From positions 1 through 64,000 of the forward strand of contig JALAGF010005569.1 of the NCBI GenBank assembly GCA_030167865.1: a DNA stretch of 64,000 bases, given 5' to 3'. The number at the start of each line of letters is the position of its first letter. Position 1 is the stretch's first letter. The translations under genes and the position numbers were made by a program. Positions 1 through 20,534 of this stretch are shown here, in pieces. Origin of the DNA: Craspedostauros australis. Taxonomy: Eukaryota. The notes beneath the pieces were generated by a model that was not told the origin of the DNA, made no database searches, and worked only from the letters and a program-made list of their open reading frames with translations.

Positions 1-670
1 ATGGATCTGAGGATGGCATGTCACTGCTGGATGGTACCGAACTGGGCAGATTGCTGACTGAGGTCGGTCCAGATGATGGGTCTGCTGATGGAATGTCACT
101 GGTCGATGGTACCGAACTGGGCAGATTGCTGACTGAGGTCGGTCCAGATGATGGGTCTGAAGACGGAATGTCACTGCCTGATGGCGATCCGCTGCTGGAT
201 GGTGCAGAACTGGGCAAATTGCTGACTGAGGTCGGTCCAGATGATGGGTCTGCGGATGGAATGTCACTGCCTGATGGTGATCCGCTGCTGGATGGTGCCG
301 AACTGGGCAGATTGCTGCCTGACGTTGGTCCAGATGATGGATCTGAGGACGGCATGTCACTGCTGGATGGCGCAGAACTGGGCAGATTGCTGACTGACGT
401 TGGTCCAGATGATGGATCTGCCGATGGCATGTCACTGCTGGATGGTGCCGAACTGGGCAGATTGCTGCCTGACGTCGGTCCAGATGATGGATCCGCCGAT
501 GGTGATCCGCTGCTTGATGGCGCAGAACTGGGCAGATTGCTGACTGACGTTGGTCCAGATGATGGATCTGCTGATGGTGATCCGCTGCTGGATGGTGCAG
601 AACTGGGCAGATTGCTGACTGAGGTCGGTCCAGATGATGGATCTGTGGATGGCATGTCACTGCTGGACGG
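1..670. repeat. Coding tandem repeat, ~75-nt unit (some with 18-nt insertions)
   Basis: Unit gatggcatgtcactgctggatggtaccgaactgggcagattgctgactgaggtcggtccagatgatgggtctgct recurs about 8 times. On the minus strand it encodes PSSSDMPSADPSSGPTSVSNLPSS-type peptides. Confidence 0.92.
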
Positions 671-3600
671 AACACCGCTGGACAACGTCGGCCGAACGGA
701 CGGGATTGTTGACGGTGCTTCGCTATTCGATGGAACACCACTTTCGAGGCTTGGCTGCGAAGATGGGATTGCCGATGGTGCTTCGCTGCTGGACGGAACA
801 CCACTGGACAAACTCGGCTGCGAGGATGGAATTGCTGATGGTGATTCACTGCTGGATGGTACACCGCTGGACAAGCTCGGCTGCGAGGATGGCACACCAC
901 TGGACAACGTCGGCTGCGAGGATGGAATTGCTGATGGTGATTCACTGCTGGATGGCACACCACTGGACAAAGTCGGCTGCGAGGATGGAAATGCTGATGG
1001 TGATTCACTGCTGGATGGAACACCACTGGACAAGCTCGGCTGCGAAGATGGAACACCACTGGACAACGTCGGCTGCGAGGATGGAATTGCTGATGGCGAT
1101 TCGCTGCTGGATGGAACACCGCTCGACAAAGTCGGCTGCAAAGATGGGATTGACGATGGCGATTCGCTGCTGGATGGCACACCACTGGACAAGCTCGGCT
1201 GCGAAGATGGCACACCACTGGACAACGTCGGCTGCGAGGATGGGAATGCTGATGGCGCTTCGCTGCTGGATGGAACACCACTGGACAAAGTCGGCTGCGA
1301 GGATGGGATTGCTGATGGCGCTTCACTGCTGGATGGAACACCACTGGACAACGTCGGCTGCGAGGATGGGATTGACGATGGCGCTTCGCTGCTGGATGGA
1401 ACACCACTGGACAAGCTCGGCTGCGAAGATGGCACACCACTCGACAAGGTGGGCTGCGAGGATGGGAATGCTGATGGTGATTCACTGCTGGATGGGACAC
1501 CGCTGGACAAGCTCGGCTGCGAGGATGGGATTGCTGATGGTGATTCACTGCTGGATGGAACACCGCTGGACAAGGTGGGCTGCGAAGATGGCACACCACT
1601 GGACAAAGTCGGCTGCAAAGATGGGATTGCTGATGGTGATTCACTGCTGGATGGAACACCACTGGACAAAGTCGGCTGCGAGGATGGGAATGCTGATGGA
1701 GCTTCGCTGCTGGATGGTACACCACTCGCCAAGGTGGGCTGCGAGGATGGGATTGCTGATGGTGATTCACTGCTGGATGGAACACCGCTGGACAAGCTCG
1801 GCTGCGAAGATGGCACACCACTGGACAAAGGCGGCTGCAAAGATGGGAATGCTGATGGCGCTTCGCTGCTGNNNNNNNNNNNNNNNNNNNNNNNNNNNNN
1901 NNNNNNNNNNNNNNNNNNNNNAAGCTCGGCTGCGAAGATGGCACACCACTGGACAAAGTCGGCTGCAAAGATGGGAATGCTGATGGCGCTTCGCTGCTGG
2001 ATGGACCACCACTGGACAAAGTCGGCTGCGAGGATGGGATTGCTGATGGCGCTTCACTGCTGGATGGAACACCGCTGGACAAGCTCGGCTGCGAAGATGG
2101 CACACCACTGGACAAAGTCGGCTGCAAAGATGGGAATGCTGATGGCGCTTCGCTGCTGGATGGAACACCACTGGACAAAGTCGGCTGCGAGGATGGGATT
2201 GCTGATGGCGCTTCACTGCTGGATGGCACACCACTGGACAACGTCGGCTGCGAGGATGGGAATGCTGATGGTGATTCACTGCTGGATGGAACACCGCTGG
2301 ACAAGCTCGGCTGCGAGGATGGGATTGCTGATGGTGATTCACTGCTGGATGGAACACCACTGGACAAGCTCGGCTGCGAAGATGGCACACCACTGGACAA
2401 AGTCGGCTGCAAAGATGGGATTGCTGATGGCGCTTCGCTACTGGATGGTACACCACTGGACAACGTCGGCTGCGAGGATGGGATTGACGATGGTGATTCA
2501 CTGCTGGATGGAACACCACTGGACAAAGTCGGCTGCGAGGATGGGAATGCTGATGGCGCTTCGCTGCTGGATGGGACACCGCTGGACAAGCTCGGCTGCG
2601 AGGATGGGATTGCTGATGGCGCTTCACTGCTGGATGGAACACCGCTGGACAAGCTCGGCTGCGAGGATGGGAATGCTGATGGTGATTCGCTACTGGATGG
2701 AACACCACTGGACAAACTCGGCTGCGAGGATGGGATTGACGATGGTGATTCACTGCTGGATGGGAGGCTGCTTGGAAGATTGCTGGATCGTGACGGCATC
2801 GACGAAGGTGGTGACGATGGCGCTTCATTGCCACTTGGCGTGATGCTTGGACCCTCGCTCATTGATGATGACGGCGCCGAGGAGGGTTGAGACGATGGTG
2901 ATTTACTATCAGATGGCATGCTACTCGGGATGTTGCTCGATGACGTTGGCATCGTCGATGGAGGAAAAGTTGGCTGTGCCGTCTCTTGTATCGCTGTTGG
3001 AGCGCTTGTCACATTGCTGACGGTCTGTTCGAACGTCGGTTCGCTTGTTTGCGGGGAAGGCGGCGTCACAGGAGCGCTGGTCGTTTGATTCTGGTCCAAG
3101 GATGGGGCAAGCGTCGCTTGTTGTTCGGTTGGCGATGCACTGATCGATGGTGGGAATGTCGGCTGTGATGTTTCTCCCACTGAAGGCGGATTTGAAGAAT
3201 CCAGTTCCGTTGGAACTACCGACAGTACTGTGGAAGGCTGGACTGTCGGGGCACTGCTTGCGTTTGGGACAACGGTGGAAGGTTGTTGTGACTCGAACGC
3301 CGTGAAGTTCAGGACTTGTGCTCTGTCGGTGCTCCCTGGTCGTGAAATGAAAGCCTCGAAGATGCGTGTGTACCCGCTTGGAAGCAGTCCTCTTCCCACC
3401 AAGTCGATCACCAGCGCATCGAACCGTTGCACGAATGCAACGAATAGACCCTCTTCTGTCGTGTACGTCAAATTTCCAGGTGAATCAGGCGGACCGACAC
3501 CATCATCGGTTGTGTTGGAATCTGCACCGTCATCAAGCTGGACGTCCTGCAAAAACCTAGTGGTCGTTGGGAAAAACGAAAAGAAAGGTTCTTCCGAGGG

Positions 3601-4890
3601 GCATCCGTTGCATTCCAGGTCAGGCAAAAACGCCACACGTAGGGCAGCGTCTGCTACAGTGGAGTCAACGGACTGCACCTCCTGGTCACCGATGGTTGCG
3701 TCCGAGATCAGACGTTCGTACACACCGTCGCACATGCCAGACACGTCGTTGTACGCAGATGTCAGTACGTCCGCGAGCTGCATTTGTTCGGGCATGTCCA
3801 AGGTTCGGTTGAACCCTTCCAGGACAATTGTGAGCGAGGACTGGTGGAATGAGGGATTCAGAGTTCCGCAACTCGAAACGATGGCAGCTGCCGGAGATGC
3901 TGCGACCGCGATTCCAACAGCCGCAGCAGATGCAGCTGCTGCCGCGGCGGTAGCGAGACCTGCACTTTGTGCGGCAGCAGCAACTAGCTCTCCACCAGGC
4001 GGTGGTGCGCCTCCAGCTGCTGCAGCCGCGGCCGTACCAGAAGCAACCGCGTTGGCTGCAGAAGAGGAGGCTTGCACGGCCATTTGTTGCAAGACTAAGG
4101 TCGTCGGCGGGAGTGGTGGAGGTGGCAGCGGAGGTGGGATAACCACTCCGGGTACACCTGTAGCGGCCAATGCCTCGGCGCCTCCGCCCCCACCTGCTAT
4201 GAACCCTCCGCCATCTGCCGCGCCTTTCGCAACCGCAGCTTGCTGAGCGATTGCCACCGCATCGTCTTCATTCGCGATGGGACCATACATGCATGACGAG
4301 ATGCATCTCCAAAGGATCATCCCAATGCTGGTGAAAGCGACAAAAAAGAGCACAAGGAAATTGCCATTGTCTTCCTCGTCATCGTCATCGTCATCGTCGT
4401 TGTTCGTGCCGTCATCTTCATTGGTGGCTTTGGTTCGACGGTTGTTGCCACGTGCGGAGGCGTCCTGATCGGTATCACGGTCACCAGCCGGGTCCGTGTT
4501 GCTGCTGCTATTGTTGTTGTTGTTGTTGTTGCGATTGTCCTTCGGTTGACTGCGATTCGGATGCTCTGCCTTGTTTTGACGGCGCTGCCCGTCGGTTTCA
4601 TTGTACACTACTTCTTCACCCTCATTAAGTCCGGAGGTGGGGCATGCCTCATCCCGAAGAGCAAAGTTTTGATCATTCGCTTGGTACGGTTGAATGTCAC
4701 CATTCTTGTCCGTCTGAAACAGCACGATGTTGTCATCTTGCTCGCTATCACTGCCATACCTTGATGAAGCCAAGTACGAATTATCCATGTAGTCCGGATC
4801 GTATTGCCTTGTGGCACGGTAATTGCGGAATATTTCCTGGATTCGAACGGCGGCGATTTCGGAATGCCGAAGCATTTGCGTTGCGGACAT
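1..4890 (-). CDS. Large type II membrane / cell-surface protein: N-terminal IQ-like motif, acidic region, single TM helix, Ala/Pro-rich linker, small Cys-containing domain with RFLQ motif, then very long Ser/Pro (mucin-like) repeat stalk; 3' end runs off the window
   Basis: Translated by hand because it has no stop inside the window and is missing from the ORF track. The minus frame reads MSATQMLRHSEIAAVRIQEIFRNYRATRQY...DDDDEEDNGNFLVLFFVAFTSIGMILWRCISSC...AYNDVSGMCDGVYER...LECNGCPSEEPFFSFFPTTTRFLQD...PSSQPSLSSGVPSSSESPSA repeats. The frame is open upstream to about 5154, so the start at 4890 is the likely but unproven ATG. The frame across the N gap cannot be verified. Confidence 0.8.
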   Translation of the reverse strand, partial: MSATQMLRHSEIAAVRIQEIFRNYRATRQYDPDYMDNSYLASSRYGSDSEQDDNIVLFQTDKNGDIQPYQANDQNFALRDEACPTSGLNEGEEVVYNETDGQRRQNKAEHPNRSQPKDNRNNNNNNNSSSNTDPAGDRDTDQDASARGNNRRTKATNEDDGTNNDDDDDDDEEDNGNFLVLFFVAFTSIGMILWRCISSCMYGPIANEDDAVAIAQQAAVAKGAADGGGFIAGGGGGAEALAATGVPGVVIPPPLPPPPLPPTTLVLQQMAVQASSSAANAVASGTAAAAAAGGAPPPGGELVAAAAQSAGLATAAAAAASAAAVGIAVAASPAAAIVSSCGTLNPSFHQSSLTIVLEGFNRTLDMPEQMQLADVLTSAYNDVSGMCDGVYERLISDATIGDQEVQSVDSTVADAALRVAFLPDLECNGCPSEEPFFSFFPTTTRFLQDVQLDDGADSNTTDDGVGPPDSPGNLTYTTEEGLFVAFVQRFDALVIDLVGRGLLPSGYTRIFEAFISRPGSTDRAQVLNFTAFESQQPSTVVPNASSAPTVQPSTVLSVVPTELDSSNPPSVGETSQPTFPPSISASPTEQQATLAPSLDQNQTTSAPVTPPSPQTSEPTFEQTVSNVTSAPTAIQETAQPTFPPSTMPTSSSNIPSSMPSDSKSPSSQPSSAPSSSMSEGPSITPSGNEAPSSPPSSMPSRSSNLPSSLPSSSESPSSIPSSQPSLSSGVPSSSESPSAFPSSQPSLSSGVPSSSEAPSAIPSSQPSLSSGVPSSSEAPSAFPSSQPTLSSGVPSSSESPSSIPSSQPTLSSGVPSSSEAPSAIPSLQPTLSSGVPSSQPSLSSGVPSSSESPSAIPSSQPSLSSGVPSSSESPSAFPSSQPTLSSGVPSSSEAPSAIPSSQPTLSSGVPSSSEAPSAFPSLQPTLSSGVPSSQPSLSSGVPSSSEAPSAIPSSQPTLSSGGPSSSEAPSAFPSLQPTLSSGVPSSQPSXXXXXXXXXXXXXXXXXXAAKRHQHSHLCSRLCPVVCHLRSRACPAVFHPAVNHHQQSHPRSPPWRVVYHPAAKLHQHSHPRSRLCPVVFHPAVNHHQQSHLCSRLCPVVCHLRSPPCPAVFHPAVNHHQQSHPRSRACPAVSHPAVNHHQHSHPRSPPCRVVCHLRSRACPVVFHPAAKRHRQSHPRSRRCPVVFHPAVKRHQQSHPRSRLCPVVFHPAAKRHQHSHPRSRRCPVVCHLRSRACPVVCHPAANRHRQSHLCSRLCRAVFHPAANRHQQFHPRSRRCPVVFHLRSRACPVVFHPAVNHHQHFHPRSRLCPVVCHPAVNHHQQFHPRSRRCPVVCHPRSRACPAVYHPAVNHHQQFHPRSRVCPVVFRPAAKHHRQSHLRSQASKVVFHRIAKHRQQSRPFGRRCPAVFRPAVTCHPQIHHLDRPQSAICPVLHHPAADHHQQIHHLDQRQSAICPVLRHQAADHHRRIHHLDRRQAAICPVRHHPAVTCHRQIHHLDQRQSAICPVLRHPAVTCRPQIHHLDQRQAAICPVRHHPAADHHQAVTFHPQTHHLDRPQSAICPVLHHPAADRHQAVTFRLQTHHLDRPQSAICPVRYHRPVTFHQQTHHLDRPQSAICPVRYHPAVTCHPQIH
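671..2762. repeat. Coding tandem repeat array of mixed 63-nt and 33-nt units
   Basis: 63-nt unit (minus strand: PSSQP[ST]LSSGVPSSSE[SA]PSA[IF]) interleaved with a 33-nt subunit (PSSQPSLSSGV). It spans the N gap, so the true copy number is unknown. Confidence 0.93.
1872..1921. other. Assembly gap (50 N) inside the repeat array
   Basis: Run of 50 N. Confidence 0.99.
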
Positions 4891-7800
4891 TTCTTGCCTC
4901 CTCAGTTGTCTTTTCGTTGGTAGAGAGGCGGCGGACGCACGTATTTGCCGTTGCCGTTGTCGGCGTCGGTAGAAGGATATGAGTTGATGGGTGCATGCAC
5001 GAGTCGGGATAGAGCATGATGGGGTGGGTTCACGGTGAGTCTTGTGAGTGTTGGAGTGTGTTGGAAGGCAGGCAGGCAGGCAGCGACGCGCACCGTTCCG
5101 CAACCAGCAAACGTCAACTGACAACGTACGCGTATGTTGCATCAAAGGCTTTTGTCAAGCAGGACGGCAGCAACCGCATTGTCCCATGTTTGGGCACTTA
5201 CCCGTGCAATCGGATGCTCCGCTGATGCATAGATTCGTTGCGAAAGACTTCGGAGGAACTTGCAAGGTTGTCTCGATGAATGGTTCTATTGCATGTTGAA
5301 CGTTGGACGTTGCATGTTGGACATGACGGATGTGTGTACATGTTGGAGTGCGAGTGCGAGTGCGAGTGCCCCCATCGTGCGTGAGAAGAAGATGGTGGCG
5401 GAATACCAGCAGAGGACAGTATGGACAAGAAGGTGGAGGGGTGAGACGCTGGAAGTTTGAAATGGACAGAGTCTGTCCAAGAGCGCTGAATGAGAGAAAG
5501 AGACAGAGAGGAGACGGAGCATTGTATCAAAACGCTGTTGGGATTGTTGGTGCTGCTCCTGCTGCCCTCACCTGGCGATGCGCTGGGAACGCTGCCTCTT
5601 GGTTTCGTTCATGACGATGCTGTACAAGTCGGAGGCGGTGTTCATTCTACGGCTCTGGGATCGGGGGCCGTGGCTGTGCCTGGGGGAAGACATCGTGCTC
5701 TGTATGTCGGAGCTCGAGGCGCCCGTTTGGGATGATGAATCCATCTGGGTCCGTTGTGTTGGTCTCCGCGTGCTCCTCTTGGACGTTGGGCTGGATGAGG
5801 GTCTGCTGCCAATGGTGGAGCCTGTTGGGATACGTGGATGCATCGCATCAGCTTGGCGCTGATCATCGTCCATCTTGTTGGTCACCTCCAAGATCTTTCT
5901 GCTGCTTGCTGCGTTGTCGATTATACTCGTATTGGTATCCTATCGTGCGTATCCAAAATCTTGTTTTGAATCCACCGTCGCGTGCGTTGGAGGGAGGACA
6001 GAGACGGAGATGATACCGTGGAGATGGGGTCTTGCTTGTTGTCTTGGTCAGTGTGGAGTCGAATGGTTTGTTGTGCTGTCGCTTCGAATCTCGGCGTGGG
6101 AGAGGGTGATGCTGTGGACCTGCCCGAACGTGTTGGTGTGAGTTCGTCATGGTTGTTGCGCTAATTGTTCCATTTTCTCACGACGCTGCTGTCTTTGTTG
6201 TTCCATTCTCCTGCCTCTCGTCACCATGGCTTTCCCTTTGGGCGCGATGTGCTGTACTCGTGTTGTGGTTGTGGTTGTGATGGTGTGGTGGCGGTGCCAT
6301 CGTTGTTGAGCACCTCGCCATCAGCAACAAAAAACTCCAAACAGAATCGCGTAAGACGAGCAGCGGCGGATCAATTTTCCTCTCTCGCCGATTTGGCGTC
6401 CAAAAGAGCCCGTGGAGGTGCTGGAAGGAAGAGAAAAGATAATGTGACACTTCCTTGTCGCCATCTTCGGAGGAGAGATCGTCACTTCTTGGACGAGATA
6501 ATAATGAACACAACAGAACCGGACTAACTACAGTACTTAAAGCCAATGAGGAAGGATTTATGCGGTGTCGGCGCATCATCAAACTCGTTCGTACACGCAG
6601 GCTCCCCACTCTTTGTGTTTGCACAACAGCGCCTATCGCAGCCAACCATCTGCAAGAGGAATACGAACCACGGATAATGATGGTGTGCTTATTGTCAAAC
6701 TGCTACCAACATCAGATGGCGTGGCCGCCTCTTGTTGCCATCATCCAATGTCGCGTCCCTTCCTCTCTCTCTCTCTCTCTCTCTGGAGAAAGATCTCTGT
6801 CTGTAGCGATCGTTCTCCAACACCGAGGTGGCGTGCGCCATCGTCGTAGTTCATGCCGCATTCACGCTCGTCAACAATTGACAGATGACTTTTCCTTCCA
6901 CACAAGTACTTGGACGTTGGCGAACGATACAAATGGAATCAACCAATGACTGGCTCGGTCAGGTGTGCGAATGGAATCCTCCAATCCTCGACTCAGACAA
7001 CCTTGTTTCTGAACATCGCTTTCGTTTGTGTCAATGGTTCGAGCAGAAGCACAGCGTTCATGTACCTGTTCACCCATGTCGGCCTGTCTCCTCCACACAT
7101 ATCCCCTCATCCGCGCGCATTCGTCATCTGCCCAAGACTTGATTTTGTGTAGAGACATCAACCTTTTGCACACCGCCGTGTACTTGCTGCCAGGCCGATC
7201 GCCATCGACAAGAACGCAACAGTCGTCACAACAATCCTCTCTGTTGGTGGACTGGTTGGCGCCATTGGAATCTCGTGCCAACGTGCGAGGGCTCTCCTCC
7301 GAAGCACGAAGTGAAGCGCTGAGAGGGAATGGAGCGAAAAAGGGAGCTGATGGACTTCACAAGAGACTATTTTTCTGTTTGGCGGACATTCGATGTGAAG
7401 GGAGTGAGGGTTCTAAATCCGAGCCTCTGATTTTGATGTCTTTTTTGGCGCCTTCGTCGATGACGTCACCAAGCATGCATCGAAGCATGTTCTTTCACAT
7501 TCCACCAATGCAAATAGTGGGTACTACATTCTCGGTATATGTACAAACGGGATTGGTATAACGGACATTGTGTTCGATGAAAACAAATGTTCGATAGATA
7601 CTGTCGAAGGACAGAAACAGCGTTTCCTCACAATGCTCGATATTAACGGTTACAGGTATTCAGGGACTTACTTTTGGCAAGACCCAACTGGCGAGTTCGC
7701 GAAACGATTTGGAAGGCGAAACAACGAGCGTGTGTCGTGGTGGATGTGGTGCAAGACGGTGACAAGGACGACACACGCGGACGTAACAAGAAGAGGCTGT

Positions 7801-8290: not shown

Positions 8291-11200
8291 ATGAGCGAGG
8301 GCGCCAACCGTTCTTGGAGGGGCATTGGCATCGCCCCATCCCCAAGCTCTGCGCCCATGCTGTCGTTGCCTGCCGGTACCACTTCTGGATCCTTCATGCC
8401 CCCGCAGGTCCTTGGAGTTTCAGGACCGCCTCAGGTTGCCGACAATCGCAATAGCAACAGCAACAAAACTGCTTCGGACGCATCGTCTCCGCAGCGCAAC
8501 GCGGACAATGCCTCTTCTGCACAAGTGGAGACCGTGGAGACTGCGGCACCAACACCCAGCAAGCCAGGACGGTCTCCCACCACACCCACGCAGGCACGAT
8601 CACGGTCGCAGCCGCCCACTAAGGTCCAGTCGCAATCGCCAAATGCTGCCGGTGCCAAAGCGACGCAGAGGAATGTTGTGCAGACCAAACCAAGGCTGGC
8701 ACACCGCCGATCGCAGCAGCTGCTCAAGCATGTCTCCAACGAGCAGAAGGCCATTGCGGCGGATCTGGTTGCGAAGGTCAAGTCAGACTCCAGATCGAAC
8801 CCCAAGAGCCACAGCGGCACAAGCATTGATGGCTCCGTGCCAGAGTCTGCCTCCCAGTCCATGTCGGCTCTTCCGGAATTCGACGCAGGCAACGATTCCA
8901 GCAGACGCGGACATCGCAGTCGGCTGCGTCATCGTAGTCATCCTGCGCTGTGCTCCTTCTCGCAAGGCATTCAACCCTTGGCGTTGCAGACGGCAGCCGC
9001 TGAGGCGAACACGGGCATGACTTCGACCATGAACGCAGACGCGGATATCCATAATGACGTTTTTCTTGCGTCCGGACGCATTCTCTACGTAGCTTGCGTC
9101 CGGACGCAAATTGAACGCTCAGTTTGCGTCCGGACGCAAATTGGGCCAATTTGCGTGGGGACGCAAATGCAAGCTCGCCGAAAATGCCACTTGTACTACT
9201 TAAGTCCCATGTTCCTCCACGATGTCCCGTGTTGCAGAAAAAAAACCCGATTTCGGTCCGAAACCCGAAAGTGGGCTGTTTTTTTTCTGACTCCTTCGAG
9301 TAACGCATTTATTTGGCGATTTCAAAAAAAAAAAACCTCGCGATGCAACACGGCGTCATTGGNNNNNNNNNNNNNNNNNNNNNNNNNNNNNNNNNNNNNN
9401 NNNNNNNNNNNNGTTCCTTTCCGTGCGCCTGTCTTGCTTTTCTGACGTCATGGGATCTAAGGTAATGATCTTTTACTTTTTGATTTCGATGTCATCGACC
9501 ACGATCCTGACAACAACACCAAAATCCTGGCAACGGTGTAACACAACAAGGAGGGTTGGGCACGAATCATGATTTTTTTGTTCAATTACCACAACTTTAG
9601 CGATTATTATAGATTTAACACATGAGTCATGTCGTGAGTCGAGATGGCCAGCGCAAGAGGATCAAAACAAAAAACGGGTTTTCGTAAAGCGTATTTGGGC
9701 TAGTCCTTTCAGTCGCCGCTTGCGTCCGGACGCAAATTGGCCCAATTTGCGTGGGGACGCAAACTGAGCGTCCAATTTGCGTCCGGACACAAGCTACGTA
9801 GGCCAGTACCAGGCCAAAATCATTATGGATATCGGCATGGATGAGTCAACCGGTGTGGATCTGGATGTGGCAGCAGAAGCGTACGCTGCCAACCGAGTGG
9901 CAACTGAAGCGAATGCAGAAGGTGCCGCCACCAACGCACGTGGGACAACGAATGGCAGAGCATTGCCCACAATCTTCGATGCCACCATGTTGACGATGAT
10001 GAATCACAACGGAATGGAGGTGGTCTTCGCCATTGTTCAGCAGGTGCCACCCGGGGACACCGCCTCCGTCAACTCTCCTGCCAAGCACCAACGTCGGAAC
10101 TACGAGCTCAGTGAACCCCCTGTCCTGCTGGTGGTCGATGCCCGCGACTACTTCGTCATCCAACGATTGGACATGATCCCACCACAACGCAACAGAGCAA
10201 ATACCAATGCCAACGTCAATGTCAACCTCACGATCCCAACGTTTGCGCCGGTTGTGAGTCTCACAGCCCATCCCGATTCTGGGACGGTCGTTGTTGTGCA
10301 GCAGGATGGAACACTGACCACCTTCACACCCCAGCGGACATGCTCACCACAGTATCCCGATCAGCAACCAAACGCGACATCTCTTGTCGCACCAACGGCT
10401 CTTCCTGATGGTCACAGCAGTAACACGGGTGCAACCAGCCCTGCGACCATCCCGGCAATGCACGGCAAATACAACTGGAGGCCAACCTGTCAGAACGATC
10501 TAAACCACGTCTTCGTCGCGGAGGAGGAGGAGGAAGGAGAGGAAGACGACCAAGCCAACGGGGCGCATTGGAGATTCATGGACCGTCGATATTCGAAAGT
10601 TGACTCACCCGCAGATTCACACTTCTCCTGCGTGGATGTGTCGCAGTCTCAACAGAAGTGCTTCCTGGTGTCACACGGCAGCCAGATTGCCTTGTTCGAC
10701 GGACTTTTGGAACCACCCTGCCAGCCAAACCCAGCAGCCACATCCTCAACGTCAACGTCAGTGCCACTATCGCCAACCGCTTCGTCACGATCCAACCGCC
10801 TCCCCACCGCCAAACTCATTTGGACCACCATGTGCTCATCTCGCATCTTGACAGCCAAGCTCTCCGGCGACGGCAGAAGCATCGTCGCCGTCCTCGAGGA
10901 GGACAACCAACCCGCACCCACAGACCCAACAGCTGTCAATCAAAACTACGAGTATAGCACAGAACAGGCTTTCGATGACGATGTACATTCCATGGAGGAG
11001 ATCGATCAAGGAATGCAACCCAACCAGAAGTTTGGATGCAGGACGTTCATTCACGATCTCGATGATGGATTTGCGTATGATGTGGCGCACAACTCCGTGA
11101 CCAACCTTTCGGTTGGAGATGACAACGATGCGCAGTCGCAAATGACAGGCCAAGTGACAAAAGCAGGAGCAACGTCAATCGATCAACTCCATCGCTCCAA

Positions 11201-14200
11201 CCTCGAGAGAGCAAGTTCTGTCGGCCGCGTGTACAAATCGGGACCATTCCTTCCGCATTCATCGCCGGTCACCAGAATCTCATTCCGAAGCGCCGTGGGG
11301 CAAACATCTGCACATTTCCAACCCAGCAGCGCCAGCGGCACCAGCAGCGGGAGGAACACAGCGAACCACTTCCAAGATGAAGCGTACATTGGTACCGACC
11401 TTTTGCTCACGTACTGCAAAGACAGATCGACCGTGAGGATCTTCCAGCAATCTGACTGGTCGCAGTGCATGGGCTGGACGACCTCGCCCGACACGCGTGC
11501 CGACTTCGTCTCCGGCAGCGTTGCCTTCACGCTCGGCGATTTGGAACCGCTGGCACCTGCCACAAAAAATCGAAGCACGAAGAGACGGAATGGCGGCAGA
11601 TCCCTCAGCCGGCATAATTCTGGCGCTTCCGACTCCACCGGCAGCCTCGATCCAGCCCTTATCAGCCGTGCACCGAACGGAGGCCTTGGCATGGGGTCGC
11701 CGCCCACTATCGGCAGCACGAGCAACAACATACTCGCAGCGGGGGCATGGATTGCGGAGCTGACCTTCCGACATTCGTCCTTCCCGGCCCTTCGATTGTC
11801 CCGGCTGTCCTACATGCATCACAGCTCTGCTGGCAGCGGCAGGCACGGCCTCCAAACAGCTCACTTCGAATCCGTCGCGGCTATCTTGCCCTGCGAATCC
11901 TTGGACGCCGAATCCATCCTCCAAAGCGATGATCTGGGATTCTGCATCCATGGCATCTGGCCTGCGTGGAATCCATGGACGGCGACTGGGGGGTTGTTCG
12001 GCAACGCGGTTCCTCCCGAAGACCTCACCAAGACGCTCAGCGGGTCTGCCATGGCGTTTCTGGGGTTGGCTGGCAACAACGGCATCAACAGCGGCGGCAC
12101 ACCGAGCAACTTTCCGGGAGGTAGCGGTGGATTCAGTGCCGGCGGCGGCGGTCTCAGCATTCACGGCAACCCTATCGCGATGGGCGGTACCCATGCCCCA
12201 CCCAGCGAGCTCCGCATTTTCGCATCCAACCCGAACAGCGAGATAGTCACCATGGAATTCCCACTTTGGGGCGATGAAGAATTTGGCAGTATGGAGCTGG
12301 GGAGCCCGTTGAGGCATGTCCTAAACCTCGCGGAAACTGCCGAAGTCAACACTCGACCGGCAGCAACGGAGTTGGTGTTGGCAACGTCAGCCATGACAAA
12401 CAGTGGAACCATGCCTGCCATTGCATTTCCAACTCCTGCTGCTGCTGCTGCTGCTGGTGGTCCAGTTTCCATGAAACACGAATCATCTCGTCTGTGTGCA
12501 CAGATCGATCCATTCGAACAACGTTCCATCCATCTCACATGGCGTCGCCAGGGTGGCATCGTGCTGCATTCGCCTGATTGGGACCAGCAGGCGCCGCCCG
12601 AAGAAAATGCTCTTGTTGCGCACAAGGACGACCCACGCCCCAACACACCTTTGGTGCTCCAGGACTGGACCAAAACGCCGATCCCTCTCTCCTTGCCATC
12701 GCTGGAGCTCCCGGATATCCTACCGCCCTTTCAGACGGCTACGACGGTGTCGAAAAAGCAGCTCGATGTCATTATTGCGTTATCGTGGTTTGCTGACGAC
12801 TCCTTCGGTTGTCCGCCAGTTCTCCTCGCTTTGATGTCGTCGGGGAACTGCGTGCTCTTCGAAATCCCACCGCCCATCTTCGCGCTGGAGCCCAACACTC
12901 CGTCGTACGATCCCTTGTCTGGCAACTCCGTCAACAGCGCTGGAAGTACCGGCAGTGGACCCAACAGCCCCGGCAACTTCAATGCCATGGGAGGTCAAAT
13001 CGGACCAACGATGAGTGAAATGGACAGCGACGTCGATGACGAATCCGATCACTACGACGAGCATGAGGCGTACACCGTCATGGTGACGCCTCATCCGGAC
13101 TTTGGTCTTGGTCTGCGGCTGGAATCGCCGATGGATGGAATGCCAGCCGTCGCGGGGTCCTTCAAGAAGAACCCGTTGAATGATGGCATGCTGCCAGTGG
13201 AGAAGACCGGTATGATCATGCTTGGCGATGAACTGTTGAGCGTGAACGGGGTTTCGTTGGAGAACATGACATTTGATGATATCATCGGAACGGTGCGACA
13301 TGTCGGAGCAGAGTCAGGACCAGGGGAAGCACTGCGATTACAGTTCCGACCGTCCCAACCGCGTCCCCGGCGCAGCAGCATGCAGTTGGCAAGCCTGGCA
13401 TTTGCAGAAGCTCCTTCGGTGGATGCGGAAGATCGCAACAATGATAACAGAAACAATCACGGCGCAGATTTCGCCTCGGATGTTCCGAAGAAGCTAAAAT
13501 CGCCAGGCCGAACATCGACCACGGGTAGCAGCAACGACAACTCCAACCGTAGGTCGATGGAACAGATCCTCGGCGTGCCACCAAGCAAGGTCGCACATGG
13601 CCGACCGAGCGGCCATCGGCGCCATGCCAGCGATGGCGGCAACAGTCTCATCAGCTACATACAAAGTCAGCCGATCAGCGAATTCCACCAGCAATTTGGG
13701 CGCGTCCTGATGGAAACCAAGACCAAGCTTCCCCACGGATTCCTTTCGAGCGATGCATCCACAGTGCAGCAGCGCTTCCTCGTGATTCCTACAGCTCCCA
13801 AAGATGATGCCGATGGACCACCTGTTGTCAGCGGACTCGTCATCGTCGCGTCGAGACGTACTCTGCACGTGAAGCATCTGATCTCGCACCTGGACGGTAA
13901 TGATGATCTCCACTCGACCGGATCGTTGATAGATTTGGGTGTTTACGAGATCGAAGAACCGACATTAGAGGAGGGTGATGGCGATGGCGACGGCCACAAG
14001 GAGGTGAATGTGCGCATTCAATCCATTCAAAGCGTGTCATCGACGGGCGATACGTATTGCTTGTTGGTGACGGACAATATCAGTCGATCCTTCTTTGTTT
14101 TCATCGACTTCGACATGAGCACACACGCGAACCCAAACGTGGACGTGGACGAGAGAATTGCCAACCAATCTAAGCCATCCGCCACAATGCGTGGATATCC

Positions 14201-17200
14201 CGCCTTCACTACTCGCGCCAGCACAGAGGCAGGACAAGAACTGCGATCTGCTAAATGTGGTTCGTTGGGAACAATTGCAACGCTGAACGCGTCAGGGCAA
14301 CTGCAGGTATGGACTGCACGACCAGATCCGGCAGCGACCGAAGGCGCACCTGGCAAGCTTCAGAACGAGTACCTGCACAAGGACTACGTCATGGAAACGA
14401 TTCTCTTGCCAGATACCAGCACGGAGGCCGTTGATTTTGCATTCCCGCCCATGGGCACGCTGGATGCGCATGCCAGCCTCGTGGTGTTCACCAGCCACGA
14501 AGCCATACTGTACCAACGAAGAGGATCGAGCAAGTCCTACAGCTGCGTGCTGCAGGTTAAGTACACCTCGACATTGAATGAGCCAGCCATTGGCGCGGCG
14601 ACAAAAACAAGAGACTCCGAAGAGATGCCGTCTCTTCATCGCGTCAATCCGCAAGACGCCTTCCCTCACATCATGAACGCCATCATCGCGGCAATCGATT
14701 CCTACGACGAGCAACACTTTCATTTGCCAGATTGGTCACCGGAATCACTCCTGGCCCATTTGTGCACGATGGAACAAGGTGCCAAGCTCGCATTGGATCG
14801 ACACGTCAAGGCAGTCTTACTGTGGCTCGCAAATCGCATCAATGACCGGCCGATGGACAATGCCATCGATGCCAAGTTGCCGTTGCACGTGTGTCCATTC
14901 GACGAGATAGGCGGAGTTCTGCTGTTGGAAGCAGCGACGGAGGACGAAAAGGCAGATTCCTCTGGCGACGACGCTACGGCTCTGTTGGCCACAATCACGA
15001 CCGCAGCTGATGCTAGCGATGGCGCCAACAGCGATGAGACGAAGGTGTTCAAGGAGACCGTGGAACGATTGAAAACCGTCCTGGCGAAGCCTCGTAAATT
15101 CAAAAGCAGCAACAAGAAATCGTCCTTGCACTGGTCGAGTTCATCTGGATTGGGAGCCTCCATCCTTTCGGCTTCGAAGTCGGCGCACGATGATACACTG
15201 CCTCCCATACTAAAGATGATGGGTCCGGATGAGCTCCGTGTTCTTTGGGCACTCTGCGATTTCAGTCTGAAGTCGCCAAACAACAGCCAGCTCGATGTCC
15301 CTGGTCAGCTGGCCACGACCATTCACGCTCTCCATGAATCGTTGCAGCAGGCACCCGAGATTGAAAAAATAGACGAGTCCGCTGACAGTCGATGGGATGC
15401 CGTCTCGGGCCATGCCTTCCAGGTGCGACGAGCGTTGAGCAGCATTTCGGAGGCGAATGCCAAGCCCGCTGGCAACGCGTCAGCCGGGTGTCTCGGAGCC
15501 TTGCTCAGCGACTGCCAGACCAAGCTGATTGACGATTTCCGCCCGAAAGGTGGCAAGCTCGGATGGGAGCAAGCCCGGTCGCTGAAAATGCCGTTCTGGA
15601 TCCGATCAGACGACAAGCTGCGGGAGATCTGCGAAGAAATCGGGCAGCACACGTATCGGGAAACACGCGACATCATGAAGTCGGCTCTCTTCCTGATTGC
15701 CGCAGGCAAATTGCGGACGTTGCGAAACCTTGCGGCGGCAGATCATACCATGACGGGAAAGAAGTTCTTCAAGTTCGTGACAGGTTACGACTTCTCCTCC
15801 GAGCGAGGCAGACGTGCTGCTGAGAAGAACGCCTTCAGTTTGCTGCGTAAGAACCAGTACGAACCGGCTGCGGCTTTCTTTTTGCTCGCTCAGCCGCCGA
15901 TTCTCAAGTCGGCGGTGGAAACAATCGCGACCAAATTGAATGATCTGAGCCTGGCGTTCCTCGTGGCTCGACTGGTCACGAAGGAATCCACTTCGAAGAG
16001 CGGGCCTGGGATGGGTGGAGGCTCTGCCTTCCCTTCGAGCTTTGGTGGTTTCGGTGGAGGTGGTGGTTATGCCGCCTCCGAAGCCATCGTGAAGAAGGAA
16101 GTCGTTGCAGACAAGGAGAAATTCTGCGATTGGAAGCCCAGGCTCACGAAGATCGCACGAGACGTTCTCCAAGATCGAGGACTGCCAGGCACGACGGACG
16201 ATTCCTGCCTGTCTGCGATCCAATGTCTGTGGTTGGGACAGAGACACGACGCCGCCAACTGGCTGTCCAATCTGTTTGGTTCGGAATCACACACTGTCGC
16301 AAACTTCGTAGCAAGTGCTTCACTCCCACGCATCAAATCTGCCGAGAGAGTGAAGAATGATAAACATCGAGCAATGCGAAGCATGAATGCACTCATCAAC
16401 TTTATCGCGGGACCTCTGCTGCTAAAGATGATGGGCACGTCGCGCAAGGCGCTGTTGTCGTCATCCTTGACGGTTGCGACAAGCCTGATGCACGCAGGCA
16501 TAGACCTTCCGTCCATCCGATGTTTGGTGCAAGGGTTCCAAGAATCCGAGGAGGAAGAGAAGGAGCATGTTGAAGAAGATGCTGAAAAGAGCTCAAAGGC
16601 CGCAGCAGCAGGTACTGGCAGCGGCGCAGCGACGTCATCGATCTTCGATTCATTTGATGCTCCGCGACCTGCGAACCAGCAGCCTGGTGCCACGAGCGGC
16701 ACTTCGAGCGGGATGGTGTCGTCTTCTATCTTTGATAGTTTCGATGCACCCAAACCCAAGCCTGCGACAGCCCAGTCCTCCATCTTTGACAGCTTCGACG
16801 CCGCACCGCCCAAGCCTGCAAAGGCTCCTGCACCAGCGCCCAGTTCGGGACAAATGGCATCTTCAATCTTCGACAGCTTCGATACGGCACCGCCTCCTCG
16901 CAAACCAGCACCTGCTCCAGCCCCAGCAGCTCATTCAGGACAAATGGCATCGTCCATCTTTGACAGTTTCGATGCGGCACCACCACATCGCAAGCCGGTA
17001 CCGGCTCCTACACCGGCATCCATCTTTGATGCGTACGATGTCAATCCCCAAGAAGCCACCAAGCCAAAATCAATGCTGGAACAATTTGGTGGCCCCCCAT
17101 CTGCGAACAACGCATCGAAGGCATCGGATCAGCACCAGAAAGGACCGACACCCAATCCAGTCTCACCGTTGGACTTTGTTGACCTCGATGAAGTGAACGA

Positions 17201-20200
17201 GGGCGTAGCAGAGCTTGTGCACCTGGAAGTTCCAGAGTTGTGGATGCAGTGGCAACAAGAAACGTTGCTGGAAGTTGCTGCTCGTCGTGTGGTGCGAGAA
17301 GTTGCCACGATTACGAGTACCTTCCACGGAGATACATTCTTTCCAGATACCTCGGCCTGTGATACTGGGCTGGGAATCCTCGTTCCGAGACATGCCTCGC
17401 AGGTGCTTCAATTCGATTGCAACGGAGATGACATCCTCGACGACATCAATGCATGCTTGGATGGCATATCGACAGTTAGTGGTCTCGATCGCAACCATGT
17501 CGGATGCAAGGCTGTTGACTTGATCAGAGGATGCGGCAGGACGAACCGATTGATGATATCCGTGCTGCTTCAGCTCGCCATCGGCCAAACAGAGGTGGTC
17601 GAAGATACCATCCGGCATGCGAGTTCGTCTCTGATTCAAGATTGCCAGTCCGTCAGCTTGACGAACGATCGCCTGTCGGAGAAGCAGCCAACACTCGGCA
17701 GAGATGCGACGCTGCACTCCCGACGGCAGGCGGCCAATATGAGCTGGCAGCTCGAGCTCTGCCTTTGGCTGCATCGAAGCGGCGTCTTCCCTCTCACTGG
17801 TATTGCGCTGAGCGAAATGATTGCCGCGACGAGGATTGGCATGATCATCGCCAGCTGGAACAAGGACTTTGATTGCATGCAGACGATGATCAAGTACGAG
17901 CCAGATTGCCTTGTGGATGAGCTCGCCGGACGGCAGCTCTGGGGCAGCCTCAAAATGATTCCTAAAGATACCGACAAGGACAAGAGTTCAGGCGGCAACA
18001 ACCATGGTGGCGGTTGGGAGTTCCTGGTGGACTGCCGCCGCGCCGAAGCGACCAAGCTCCTCAAGTCAAAGCAGACAGGGCGTTTCATTCTCCGCCCGCA
18101 TGCTGAGGAACACGGCGTGTTCACCTTGAGCTTCAAGACGAACCTTGCTCCTGCGGATGACGTTGTGCAGCACGCCATCATTCGACTATCGGACACCGGA
18201 TTCCGTTGCGGCTCGTTCGGTCCATTCGCGACGTTGATGAAGCTGCTTGAGGCGGTATCAGCATCCCTGCCGTTTGATCTGCGATTCGACCTACCGCCAA
18301 CGGAGGATATGTTGAACGAGGAAAAGCTCAAGCCATCACCCAACGCAACATTCTTCCGTAAGTTTGGCCTGATGCGTTCGAAGCAACTGAAGGCTGGCAA
18401 CACGCCCGACGGCCCTGCTGGTTTGCTCAATCTTGACGAGGGTGATGAAGAAGCGCAAGGCAGCGATGACACTGGCGACAATGCCAATGTTAATATCAAT
18501 GCACATGCAAATGCAAATTCCAACGCTGATGCACCCATCGAATCACCAAATCCCGAGGTTGCTGTACAAGCGAAGAAGGACAACGCGCAGCGTGCAAAGC
18601 AGTTCGGTCTCTTCCTCGAACTCTTGGTACTTACGAAGTTCCGCACTCAGCTCAGCGGCATCGTCTCGGCAAGATACGAGGACACAGAGCAGGGCCACGA
18701 TCTCTTCGCCAACTCGGAGGATATGTACTCCATCGGAAGTCTGTCGGATGACTTGCACAAAAATTCGGTAGCACTGCAGTACTCCGTGGCGGTCAGAATG
18801 CTCCGCCCTTTCCTAAACTGGTGCAGACGGCTGGAGCTTGATGTTCTCACATCTTTGTCACCAGATGTTGCCGACACCGTGGCGGCACCCCTGACAATCC
18901 CAATCGCGTTCAAGGCGTCGGAGACCGCCATCGAGATATCGCCAGCCGAGATCTCCACCGTCGTAAGTGCGGGAGACAAGGTCATCCGTCAGATGATCAA
19001 GCGAGGTTCGGGGGTGCAGTTCCGCACCATGCGCTTGGGCGATGGCAACGACAGCGCGATGGTAGTGCTGTTCAGCAAGCGCGAAGCGATGGAGTGGTTG
19101 GTGGAAAGCGGCACGGAGAAATCCACCCGCGACGCCTTCAATCGGTTGAGGCAGATGGAGATCAGCCGCGTCATCGAGGCAATCGATTTCAAGCAGCTTG
19201 CGCCGAAACTGTACAAGGACAGCGTCAGCAATGCTAAGGAGAAACAGAATGCGCAGGCTGAAGCAACCGCAGATGCAAGCACAGGCGCGGTCAGATCCAT
19301 CGAGGACACCGAGGGCATTCGGTACCGTATCGTCGATCCATGGGAGGTGGAACCACTGCGCAGCAGAGAGGCCGAGACGCTGGGCGCGTCGCTGGGTCGT
19401 CACCGATTGCATGCGTTCAGCCTCGCCAAAGTGTCCGCATCCTGCAGTGATGTGTTCCGCACTTTGGGTGGCTCTAAGCTGTTGGAATTGTGGGTCGCAT
19501 GCAACGGTGGCGTGACGCTGTCAAAGGCATTGGCGTCCGCTCACCCTCCATGGGAACGTGGTCCAGGCGTGGAGCTAGCGAACTATATTGGTGGTGGGGC
19601 TGGTGGGGCTGATGGACTCACAATCCTCGAATCTCAACCATTCATGGAGAGCATCCGGCAGCACCTCTATCGCAACGCCCTGTACCGACGCCTCGGCACG
19701 CCGCAACGCTTCCTGGCATTGATCCAGGTAGAGTTGCTGGATCTGAAGAACCTGACAGCCCCAAGCGGCTCGCTGTCGTTGTCCGTCTATTCTCTGCTCC
19801 GTTTGAAGCGAAGCAGCAGCAACAGCAGCAGCTCCAAGGGATCGAAGGGCGGTGCATCATCGGGCAAGTTGCTCAGTCACAAAGCCCGCACGTTGGACAG
19901 CGTCGCAACCGCTCCAGTCCGGCTGGGCAAGACCATGAATGCCGGTCCCAACGCACCAGCATCGTGGGGAAGCTTGGTTCGATTCCGCTTCCCGCTCCCC
20001 GAATTCGTGCAGACGGATGGAGCGTCGCAGTGCAACGATCGCGAAGCACTCTTCAAAGGACCGCCGACGGTACTGCAGCTCGCAGTGTACGAAAAGAAGT
20101 TCATGAGCGATTCGCTGCTGGGTGCCGCAGACGTCAAGCTGGATGGCCTGGGCACTGATGGGCAGCTCGAGGAATGGGTGCCGCTGCAAAACGACAGCTA

Positions 20201-20534
20201 CGGCATCCATTGGTTTGCACGCATTCGACTGACACTCCGCTTCGAACTTTTGTGTCTCAACGATCCGGTCATTCCCCAACCAGGTGATGCCGATGCGAGC
20301 AGGACGCCCGTCAGCGATGGCAATGGCAACGCTGCTGCTGTTACTTCTGGTCAGGCGCAATCGAATGGGGATGGCAACGGAGGATTCGGTCATAGCGATG
20401 GTGATGAGCTGGCACCCAGTGTTGGACTCAAGCGCATTCAACAGCTGACTGACAGTGGCGGTGTCAGCGAGGACATCAAGAAGAGCGTGAGCACGCCAGA
20501 CCTGCTGAGTTACTTCGAGGGCATCGTGTACTAG
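8291..20534 (+). CDS. Rabconnectin-3alpha/DmX/RAVE Rav1-like giant protein with additional PDZ, SH2, DEP-like and C2 domains; coding sequence interrupted by an insertion at 9049-9828
   Basis: The 3585-aa ORF 9777-20534 has the Rav1_C signature (PFWIRS...DFSSERGRRAAEKNAFSLLRKNQYEPAAAFFLLA), a PDZ domain (FGLGLRL...GDELLSVNGVSLENMTFDD), an SH2 domain (WEF...RAEATKLL...GRFILRPH...FTLSF...VQHAII...GPFATLMKLL) and a C-terminal C2 domain (LQLAVYEKKFMSDSLLG...EEWVPL). The upstream ORF from ATG 8291 joins it in frame (..MNADADI|GMDEST..) when the element and one ATAT are removed. Confidence 0.88.
9049..9828. mobile_element. TIR DNA transposon / MITE-like insertion with ATAT target-site duplication
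   Basis: ATAT at 9045-9048 and at 9829-9832. Terminal IR CCATAATGA (9049-9057) / TCATTATGG (9820-9828). 82-bp subterminal IRs at 9085-9166 and 9720-9801 (6 mismatches by eye) built from TTGCGTCCGGACGCAA palindromes. AT-rich interior with an N gap. No transposase is visible. Confidence 0.9.
9363..9412. other. Assembly gap (50 N) inside the transposon-like element
   Basis: Run of 50 N; the true element length is unknown. Confidence 0.99.

Follow-up and report, generated by a model that had tools for sequence, protein, structure and literature searches.

The first 64,000 nucleotides of contig JALAGF010005569.1 from the diatom Craspedostauros australis (GenBank assembly GCA_030167865.1, forward strand; this whole stretch is called the window below) contain a transposon-like element at positions 9049 to 9832, in a gene of the RAVE/rabconnectin type. 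Our results are best explained by the insertion of a non-autonomous cut-and-paste element, similar to a MITE (a miniature transposable element with inverted repeats), into the coding sequence of this gene. Such an insertion would disrupt the allele. We put the probability of this explanation at about 75%. The element is bounded by terminal inverted repeats (TIRs) and flanked by a short direct repeat, the sequence on both sides is coding, the assembled element has no coding capacity, and its removal restores a single reading frame. The structure is clean enough for a recent event, and the insertion probably is recent. The insertion is genuine, though of an ordinary sort, and one copy is not enough to name its transposon family.

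Ends, junctions and interior of the element

The element is 784 bp long as assembled, a figure that holds for the assembly only, given the 50-N gap inside. A perfect 9-bp TIR bounds it, with CCATAATGA on the left (9049–9057) and TCATTATGG on the right (9820–9828), and a direct repeat of 2 to 7 bp lies at the junctions. As read, the left end is ATAT (9045–9048) followed by CCATAATGA, and the right end is TCATTATGG followed by ATAT (9829–9832). Inside the termini are two spacers of unequal length, 27 nt on the left (9058–9084) and 18 nt on the right (9802–9819), and inside the spacers are two subterminal arms of 82 nt (9085–9166 and 9720–9801) that match at 93% as an inverted repeat. This pair is the longest among the inverted repeats within 6 kb of each other in a search of the whole window. 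The initial annotation had described the same two-part ends, and both direct reading and the repeat search bear it out. The junctions themselves form a pair of 17-nt inverted repeats (9041–9057 and 9820–9836) with 94% identity.

Taken alone, an inverted repeat of 9 bp that is flanked by a 4-bp repeat is not rare. There are five unrelated pairs elsewhere in the window, and shuffled sequences contain 2.4 on average. We judge the termini not to be chance matches because they are placed just outside the 82-nt arms. By a hand estimate (60 x 60 placements x 4^-9 x 4^-4), the chance of finding such termini within 27 and 18 nt of the arms is about 5e-5.

The subterminal arms are built from units of a 16-bp palindrome, TTGCGTCCGGACGCAA. 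With up to two mismatches there are seven copies, all between 9066 and 9792, where 0.02 would be expected, and none elsewhere in the 64 kb. Four copies are at the left end and three at the right, with a spacing of 27–30 bp. The left arm begins with another palindrome, CTACGTAG, and carries 16-mers at 9094–9109, 9124–9139 and 9151–9166; the right arm carries them at 9720–9735, 9747–9762 and 9777–9792 and finishes with CTACGTAG. An alignment of the two ends places one additional palindromic 16-mer in the left spacer (9066–9081) that is absent from the right spacer. As single-stranded DNA, the left end (9045–9175) folds with -43.6 kcal/mol (z = -8.6). The simplest reading of the palindrome arrays is that they are putative binding sites of a transposase. 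The inner 44 nt of the arms (9124–9167 and 9720–9763) match at 98% as direct repeats, which is better than their match as inverted repeats. A GGGG variant of the palindrome is found on the same strand at both element ends, but in different units.

How many bases were duplicated at the target is ambiguous, because the junction is a nested palindrome. The longest direct repeat at the junctions is GGATATC, 7 bp long (9043–9049 and 9827–9833). Three symmetric solutions share one common empty site: TA followed by TCCATAATGA, ATAT followed by CCATAATGA, and GATATC followed by CATAATGA. The left copy of the duplication is thus ATAT at 9045–9048, TA at 9047–9048 or GATATC at 9044–9049; in the 4-bp reading the right copy is ATAT at 9829–9832, as read directly. 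The TA reading in full, which is TA, TCCATAATGA...TCATTATGGA, TA, is as valid as the other two. The duplication is therefore 2, 4 or 6 bp long, and up to 7 bp if it is asymmetric. The unique 4-bp ATAT duplication of the initial annotation has to be given up in favor of this range. The predicted empty site, GCGGATATCGGC, is itself palindromic at 10 of 12 positions.

The following mechanism would account for this anatomy. A transposase encoded elsewhere would act in trans and may bind the 9-bp termini together with the TTGCGTCCGGACGCAA arrays. Its staggered, symmetric cut would fall in the near-palindromic target GCGGATATCGGC, and the repair of that cut would duplicate 2, 4 or 6 bp.

The interior of the element does not look like a gene. 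It consists of a left part (9167–9362), which is non-coding and contains A/T runs, a gap of 50 N (9363–9412), whose real length is not fixed by the assembly, and a right part (9413–9719), which is also non-coding. The two parts are not significantly similar: beyond the terminal ~118 bp we found no extended inverted or direct similarity between them, and their local alignment score was matched by 28 of 200 shuffles. The G+C content of the element is 46.9%, compared with 53–57% in the adjoining 2-kb windows, and the log-odds of codon usage fall below zero in each of its six frames. The longest open reading frame (ORF) wholly within the assembled element encodes 64 aa. None of the seven interior ORFs (41–64 aa) matches Pfam at E<=1, a result that covers the assembled bases, and no ORF in the assembled element is a DDE_Tnp_1_7 transposase.

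Two features of the interior deserve a comment. First, the frame of the upstream gene stays open for 105 codons into the left half, up to the gap. We rejected this frame as coding sequence and judge it to be a composition effect, because all six frames are poor in stops and codon usage is non-coding. Of 5000 mononucleotide shuffles, 31 are also free of stops. Second, an Rfam scan of 8900–9950 returned six sub-threshold matches to microRNA hairpins (21–28 bits, with cut-offs of 55–100). We rejected a microRNA identity and regard these matches as a generic resemblance between hairpins.

There are no further copies of the element in the 64-kb window. A metagenome search with a 20-mer of the subterminal repeat matched one locus, on a G+C-rich contig of 2,328 bases. 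This is an isolated copy, and the other parts of the element are absent from the contig; we consider it a chance match. A gapped pattern of two element motifs had no match in viral contigs and none in prokaryote genome contigs. The palindrome core led to a single, unrelated paper in the literature, and neither of two element motifs occurs in the supplement of PMC12130899, of which the search covers 12 files out of 13. In the accessible parts of the literature on diatom MITEs, piggyBac or DNA transposons, we found no described family of this kind.

The gap raises the question of whether the structure could be an assembly artefact, either because contigs were mis-scaffolded across the gap or because a repeat was misplaced in the gene. 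The gap lies in the middle of the element, and the other gap of the window lies in a tandem coding repeat, so that gaps here may mark assembly trouble. However, the two junctions are on opposite sides of the gap and nevertheless match each other as TIRs with an identical flanking repeat. The outer flanks, moreover, combine to a single gene in a single reading frame, which a chance mis-join would not yield. An artefact is hence very improbable. The gap has a second consequence, in that it conceals part of the element; 'non-coding', like the length of 784 bp, is a statement about the assembly. This weighs against the MITE-like insertion that we favor, as does the fact that a single copy is seen, whose mobility and family we deduce solely from its structure.

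The probably interrupted gene

Downstream of the element, a long ORF on the forward strand (9833–20534) encodes 3,565 aa from the ATG at 9837. It carries the Rav1p_C domain (PF12234) with an E-value of 1.1e-29 and 103.8 bits (the cut-off is 27). Proteins that are about 3,000 aa long or longer and carry Rav1p_C count as RAVE/rabconnectin homologues, and the downstream ORF encodes such a protein. Genes of this type function in V-ATPase assembly. We found eight orthologues with 24–29% identity that are 3,081–3,376 aa long and carry PF12234, one of them from the diatom Cylindrotheca closterium, and an additional search for RAVE-like homologues returned 58 more matches. The RAVE-like protein of the window also has a match to SH2 (aa 2733–2805; 28.9 bits, with a Pfam cut-off of 21) and a weak match to PDZ that is below the cut-off (aa 1115–1150). 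The PDZ label is found on some orthologues too, and the mix of domains is unusual for a Rav1 homologue. The same protein contains SSIFDSFDA(P/A) repeats with proline- and alanine-rich spacers (aa ~2300–2450, window ~16700–17200).

Upstream of the element, an ORF on the forward strand that starts at 8291 stays open to the exact base of the insertion (8291–9048, or 252 codons plus two bases). Its translation ends in N-A-D-A-D at 9046, which leaves the bases AT to spare. Deleting 9049–9832 gives GAC GCG GAT ATC GGC ATG GAT, in frame. The C at 9833 completes ATC, GGC follows, and then comes the ATG at 9837 that opens the long ORF. As assembled, the frame that starts at 8291 extends into the element, where a TGA in the right arm (9765–9767) ends it. 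The initial annotation had predicted that precise excision restores the frame and fuses the ORF from 8291 to the long ORF downstream, and the sequence agrees.

Two lines of evidence argue that the upstream ORF is the 5' coding part of the RAVE/rabconnectin gene. The first is codon usage. The upstream ORF has codon log-odds of +35.9 bits, while the other five frames range from -55 to +17.7 and an equal-sized control from the long ORF reaches +45.1. The second is a short N-terminal motif that is shared with the orthologues. A motif of the SG(F/Y/L)H(M/V)PPEVLG type opens seven of the eight orthologues, and the upstream ORF contains GSFMPPQVLG at aa 33–42 (nt 8387–8416). We built a profile of the motif from those seven orthologues, excluding the sequence of the window and leaving out P0008, which begins at a later block, MEV. 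Among 1192 six-frame ORFs of the window, the best match to this profile is the upstream ORF (AGTTSGSFMPPQVLGV; E=0.007), with a runner-up at 0.12. An hhalign comparison of the motif gives P=5.4e-4 and a score of 31.1, and none of 30 shuffles scores above 21.9. A loose pattern of the motif is present in 19 of 66 RAVE-like matches (17 of the 37 long ones). All these occurrences lie no further in than residue 300, and the rest of the 130,178 residues has none. In the six-frame set of the window it occurs once, in the upstream ORF, and among 120 GH47 control proteins not at all. Diatom RAVE/rabconnectin homologues (P0003–P0010 and P0131–P0188) share a short N-terminal motif of either the SG..MPPE.LG or the GALRPPGELG type.

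Because the upstream ORF has both coding-type codon usage and the N-terminal motif of the orthologues, we conclude that the element lies inside coding sequence. Together with the TIRs, these two results support the placement of a TIR element inside the rabconnectin/RAVE coding sequence, as the initial annotation had it. By that annotation, orthologues without sequence homologous to the peptide encoded at 8291–9048 would speak against it. The outcome is in favor of its reading as far as the N-terminal motif is concerned; the remainder of the peptide has no significant alignment.

Several observations weigh against this conclusion. A single motif of ~16 residues carries the case for homology of the upstream peptide. 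The whole N-terminal profile does not find the upstream ORF significantly in the window (rank 366 of 992, with a score of -0.9 after a 28-bit bias correction), and a second conserved block of the orthologues, RKR..AVKATKSQAA, is unmatched in it. The hhalign probability of the motif is just 30.5%, and the regular expression behind the loose pattern was widened by one residue class after the motif of the window had been seen. The restoration of the frame has, on its own, a chance of 1 in 3. Finally, the motif is ~280 aa ahead of the GMEVVF block here, compared with 75–123 aa in the seven orthologues in which both were located. Because of this difference in distance, the insertion site belongs to a lineage-specific linker and the orthologues offer no check on the exact junction.

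These observations could mean that the ORF at 8291–9048 lies outside the RAVE gene. The gene would then start at the ATG at 9837 (or the one at 9825), and the element would have inserted into the 5' flank or the untranslated region. One orthologue, P0008, does start directly at the MEV block. One ATG follows immediately after the element and another lies inside its right end. The linker would otherwise be unusually long, and neither the whole N-terminal profile nor the second block has a significant match. Yet the N-terminal motif of the orthologues is found only in the upstream ORF, on the correct strand and upstream of the gene. It is precisely the frame joining the long ORF that shows coding-like codon usage. 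The 252 codons contain no stop right up to the insertion point, and the peptide has no homologue that stands alone: in the length class that was searched, 0 of 1913 candidates were related at E<=0.1. It is thus quite improbable that the element sits in front of the gene.

If the element was inserted into the coding sequence, as we think, the insertion would fall within the first ~250 codons, where a linker of low complexity follows the conserved N-terminal motif and precedes the first conserved block. The allele as assembled could then give the full-length protein only after excision or splicing of the element. The right terminal repeat contains an ATG (9825–9827) that shares the reading frame of the long ORF. 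A transcript that starts inside the element could yield a protein that lacks the first ~250 residues.

Could the element be removed from the mRNA as an intron? It would then be similar to an introner, and the gene would be functional with a few extra codons. There are 49 in-frame pairs of GT and AG; GT at 9059 or 9089 with AG at 9805–9806 or 9811–9812, for example, would add a few codons. Chance alone puts about one third of all GT/AG pairs in frame. The palindrome CTACGTAG at the outer edges of the arms supplies a GT on the left and an AG on the right, but this pair, 9089 and 9800, does not keep the frame. The upstream ORF remains unbroken and resembles coding sequence. Its end lies in a long linker that is absent from the orthologues, where small additions should be tolerated. 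The splice signals themselves are less encouraging. Of the 18 GT sites in 8990–9362, not one lies in a donor hexamer that looks canonical; GTAACG, GTAGCT and GTACTA come closest. There is also no pyrimidine tract before the AGs at 9805 and 9811. The locus also looks poor in introns: 11 of 17 long ORFs have a Pfam match, each inside one uninterrupted ORF. Introners have been reported in the diatom Thalassiosira oceanica, but, as far as the accessible part of that study goes, its families seem to be ~80–180 nt long, far shorter than our element, and unclassified (PMC12130899). We therefore consider splicing of the element unlikely.

A bolder version of our explanation would be that the element belongs to an active and so far undescribed diatom family of cut-and-paste transposons. 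Such a family would have a target centered on GATATC, its transposase would bind the arrays of 16-bp palindromes, and its members would be either excised seamlessly or spliced as new introns. We give this version little credence. If it were true, then we would be looking at an intron-generating transposon that was caught just after its landing in an exon, and in a gene that is presumably important.

Surroundings and significance

Elsewhere in the window are a repeat region and a series of genes. A tandem repeat that is coding and long spans positions 1–5142; its units are ~60/120 nt in length, and long ORFs overlap on both strands. The only other 50-N gap in the window (1872–1921) is within this repeat. 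It would fit that the gaps in the window mark repeats or allelic differences. The Pfam matches between 20950 and 63744 include GH47, thiamin pyrophosphokinase, GATase_4, two 5'-nucleotidases, VTT and RGS, among others. For the neighboring GH47 gene, diatoms are among the best named matches, with identities of up to 69%. Together with the 24–29% identity of the RAVE-like orthologues, this indicates a diatom for which the databases offer no close relative.

To our knowledge, few DNA-transposon families have been characterized in diatoms. If the family of our element is multi-copy and still moving, then it would provide an endogenous active diatom DNA transposon that could be used for insertional mutagenesis. 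The predicted empty site, in turn, could serve as a PCR marker for polymorphism between haplotypes or strains. The N-terminal motif of the SG..MPPE.LG type may be of use in locating the true starts of the very long RAVE/rabconnectin genes of diatoms. This by-product is possibly more useful than a single MITE-like insertion, which is itself an ordinary event.

Comparison with known transposable elements

The initial annotation pointed to a resemblance to piggyBac and Sola1 elements. Our results do not support it, because the comparison depends on the arbitrary choice of one of three equal symmetric readings of the junction. In the 4-bp reading, the element shares with piggyBac a palindromic 4-bp target of A and T and termini of C and G (CC...GG), and a seamless excision would restore the frame. 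The ends of piggyBac elements also consist of two parts with unequal spacers between terminal and internal repeats, and the ends of our element are similar. However, piggyBac termini are CCC...GGG, while our element has CCA...TGG in the 4-bp reading. Sola1 elements use a 4-bp AWWT target, which ATAT fits if the 4-bp reading is right; here the comparison is limited to the target duplication. The signature target of piggyBac is TTAA and that of Tc1/mariner is TA, according to the accessible text of PMC5199201, and the piggyBac transposase corresponds to Pfam DDE_Tnp_1_7, PF13843 (PMC5751038). The flanks of our element read ATAT at most, and not TTAA.

In the 2-bp reading the duplication would be TA, which would fit Tc1/mariner-derived (Stowaway-like) MITEs, and the termini of the element would be TCCATAATGA. 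Mariner-like elements are known in diatoms. Arrays of subterminal palindromes are not typical of Tc1/mariner-derived MITEs.

Introners, as found in Micromonas, Aureococcus and Thalassiosira oceanica, are similar to our element in that they are non-autonomous DNA elements in coding sequence with in-frame options for GT and AG. In contrast to introners, our element does not have canonical splice signals, and it seems much longer than the T. oceanica families in the accessible part of PMC12130899.

The closest likeness is to MITEs and other non-autonomous TIR transposons, which also have terminal inverted repeats, a flanking duplication, no coding capacity and a strong potential to form hairpins. 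Like MITEs, the element has a lower G+C content than its surroundings, is inserted in a gene, and has a length near the usual one of less than 800 bp that is given in the accessible text of PMC5199201. With 784 bp and a gap without a fixed size, the element is at or above this usual limit, and it is seen as a single copy, whereas multi-copy status is a usual criterion for a MITE. It also differs from MITEs in its ends, which are unusually elaborate and combine a 9-bp terminus with arrays of 16-bp palindromes.

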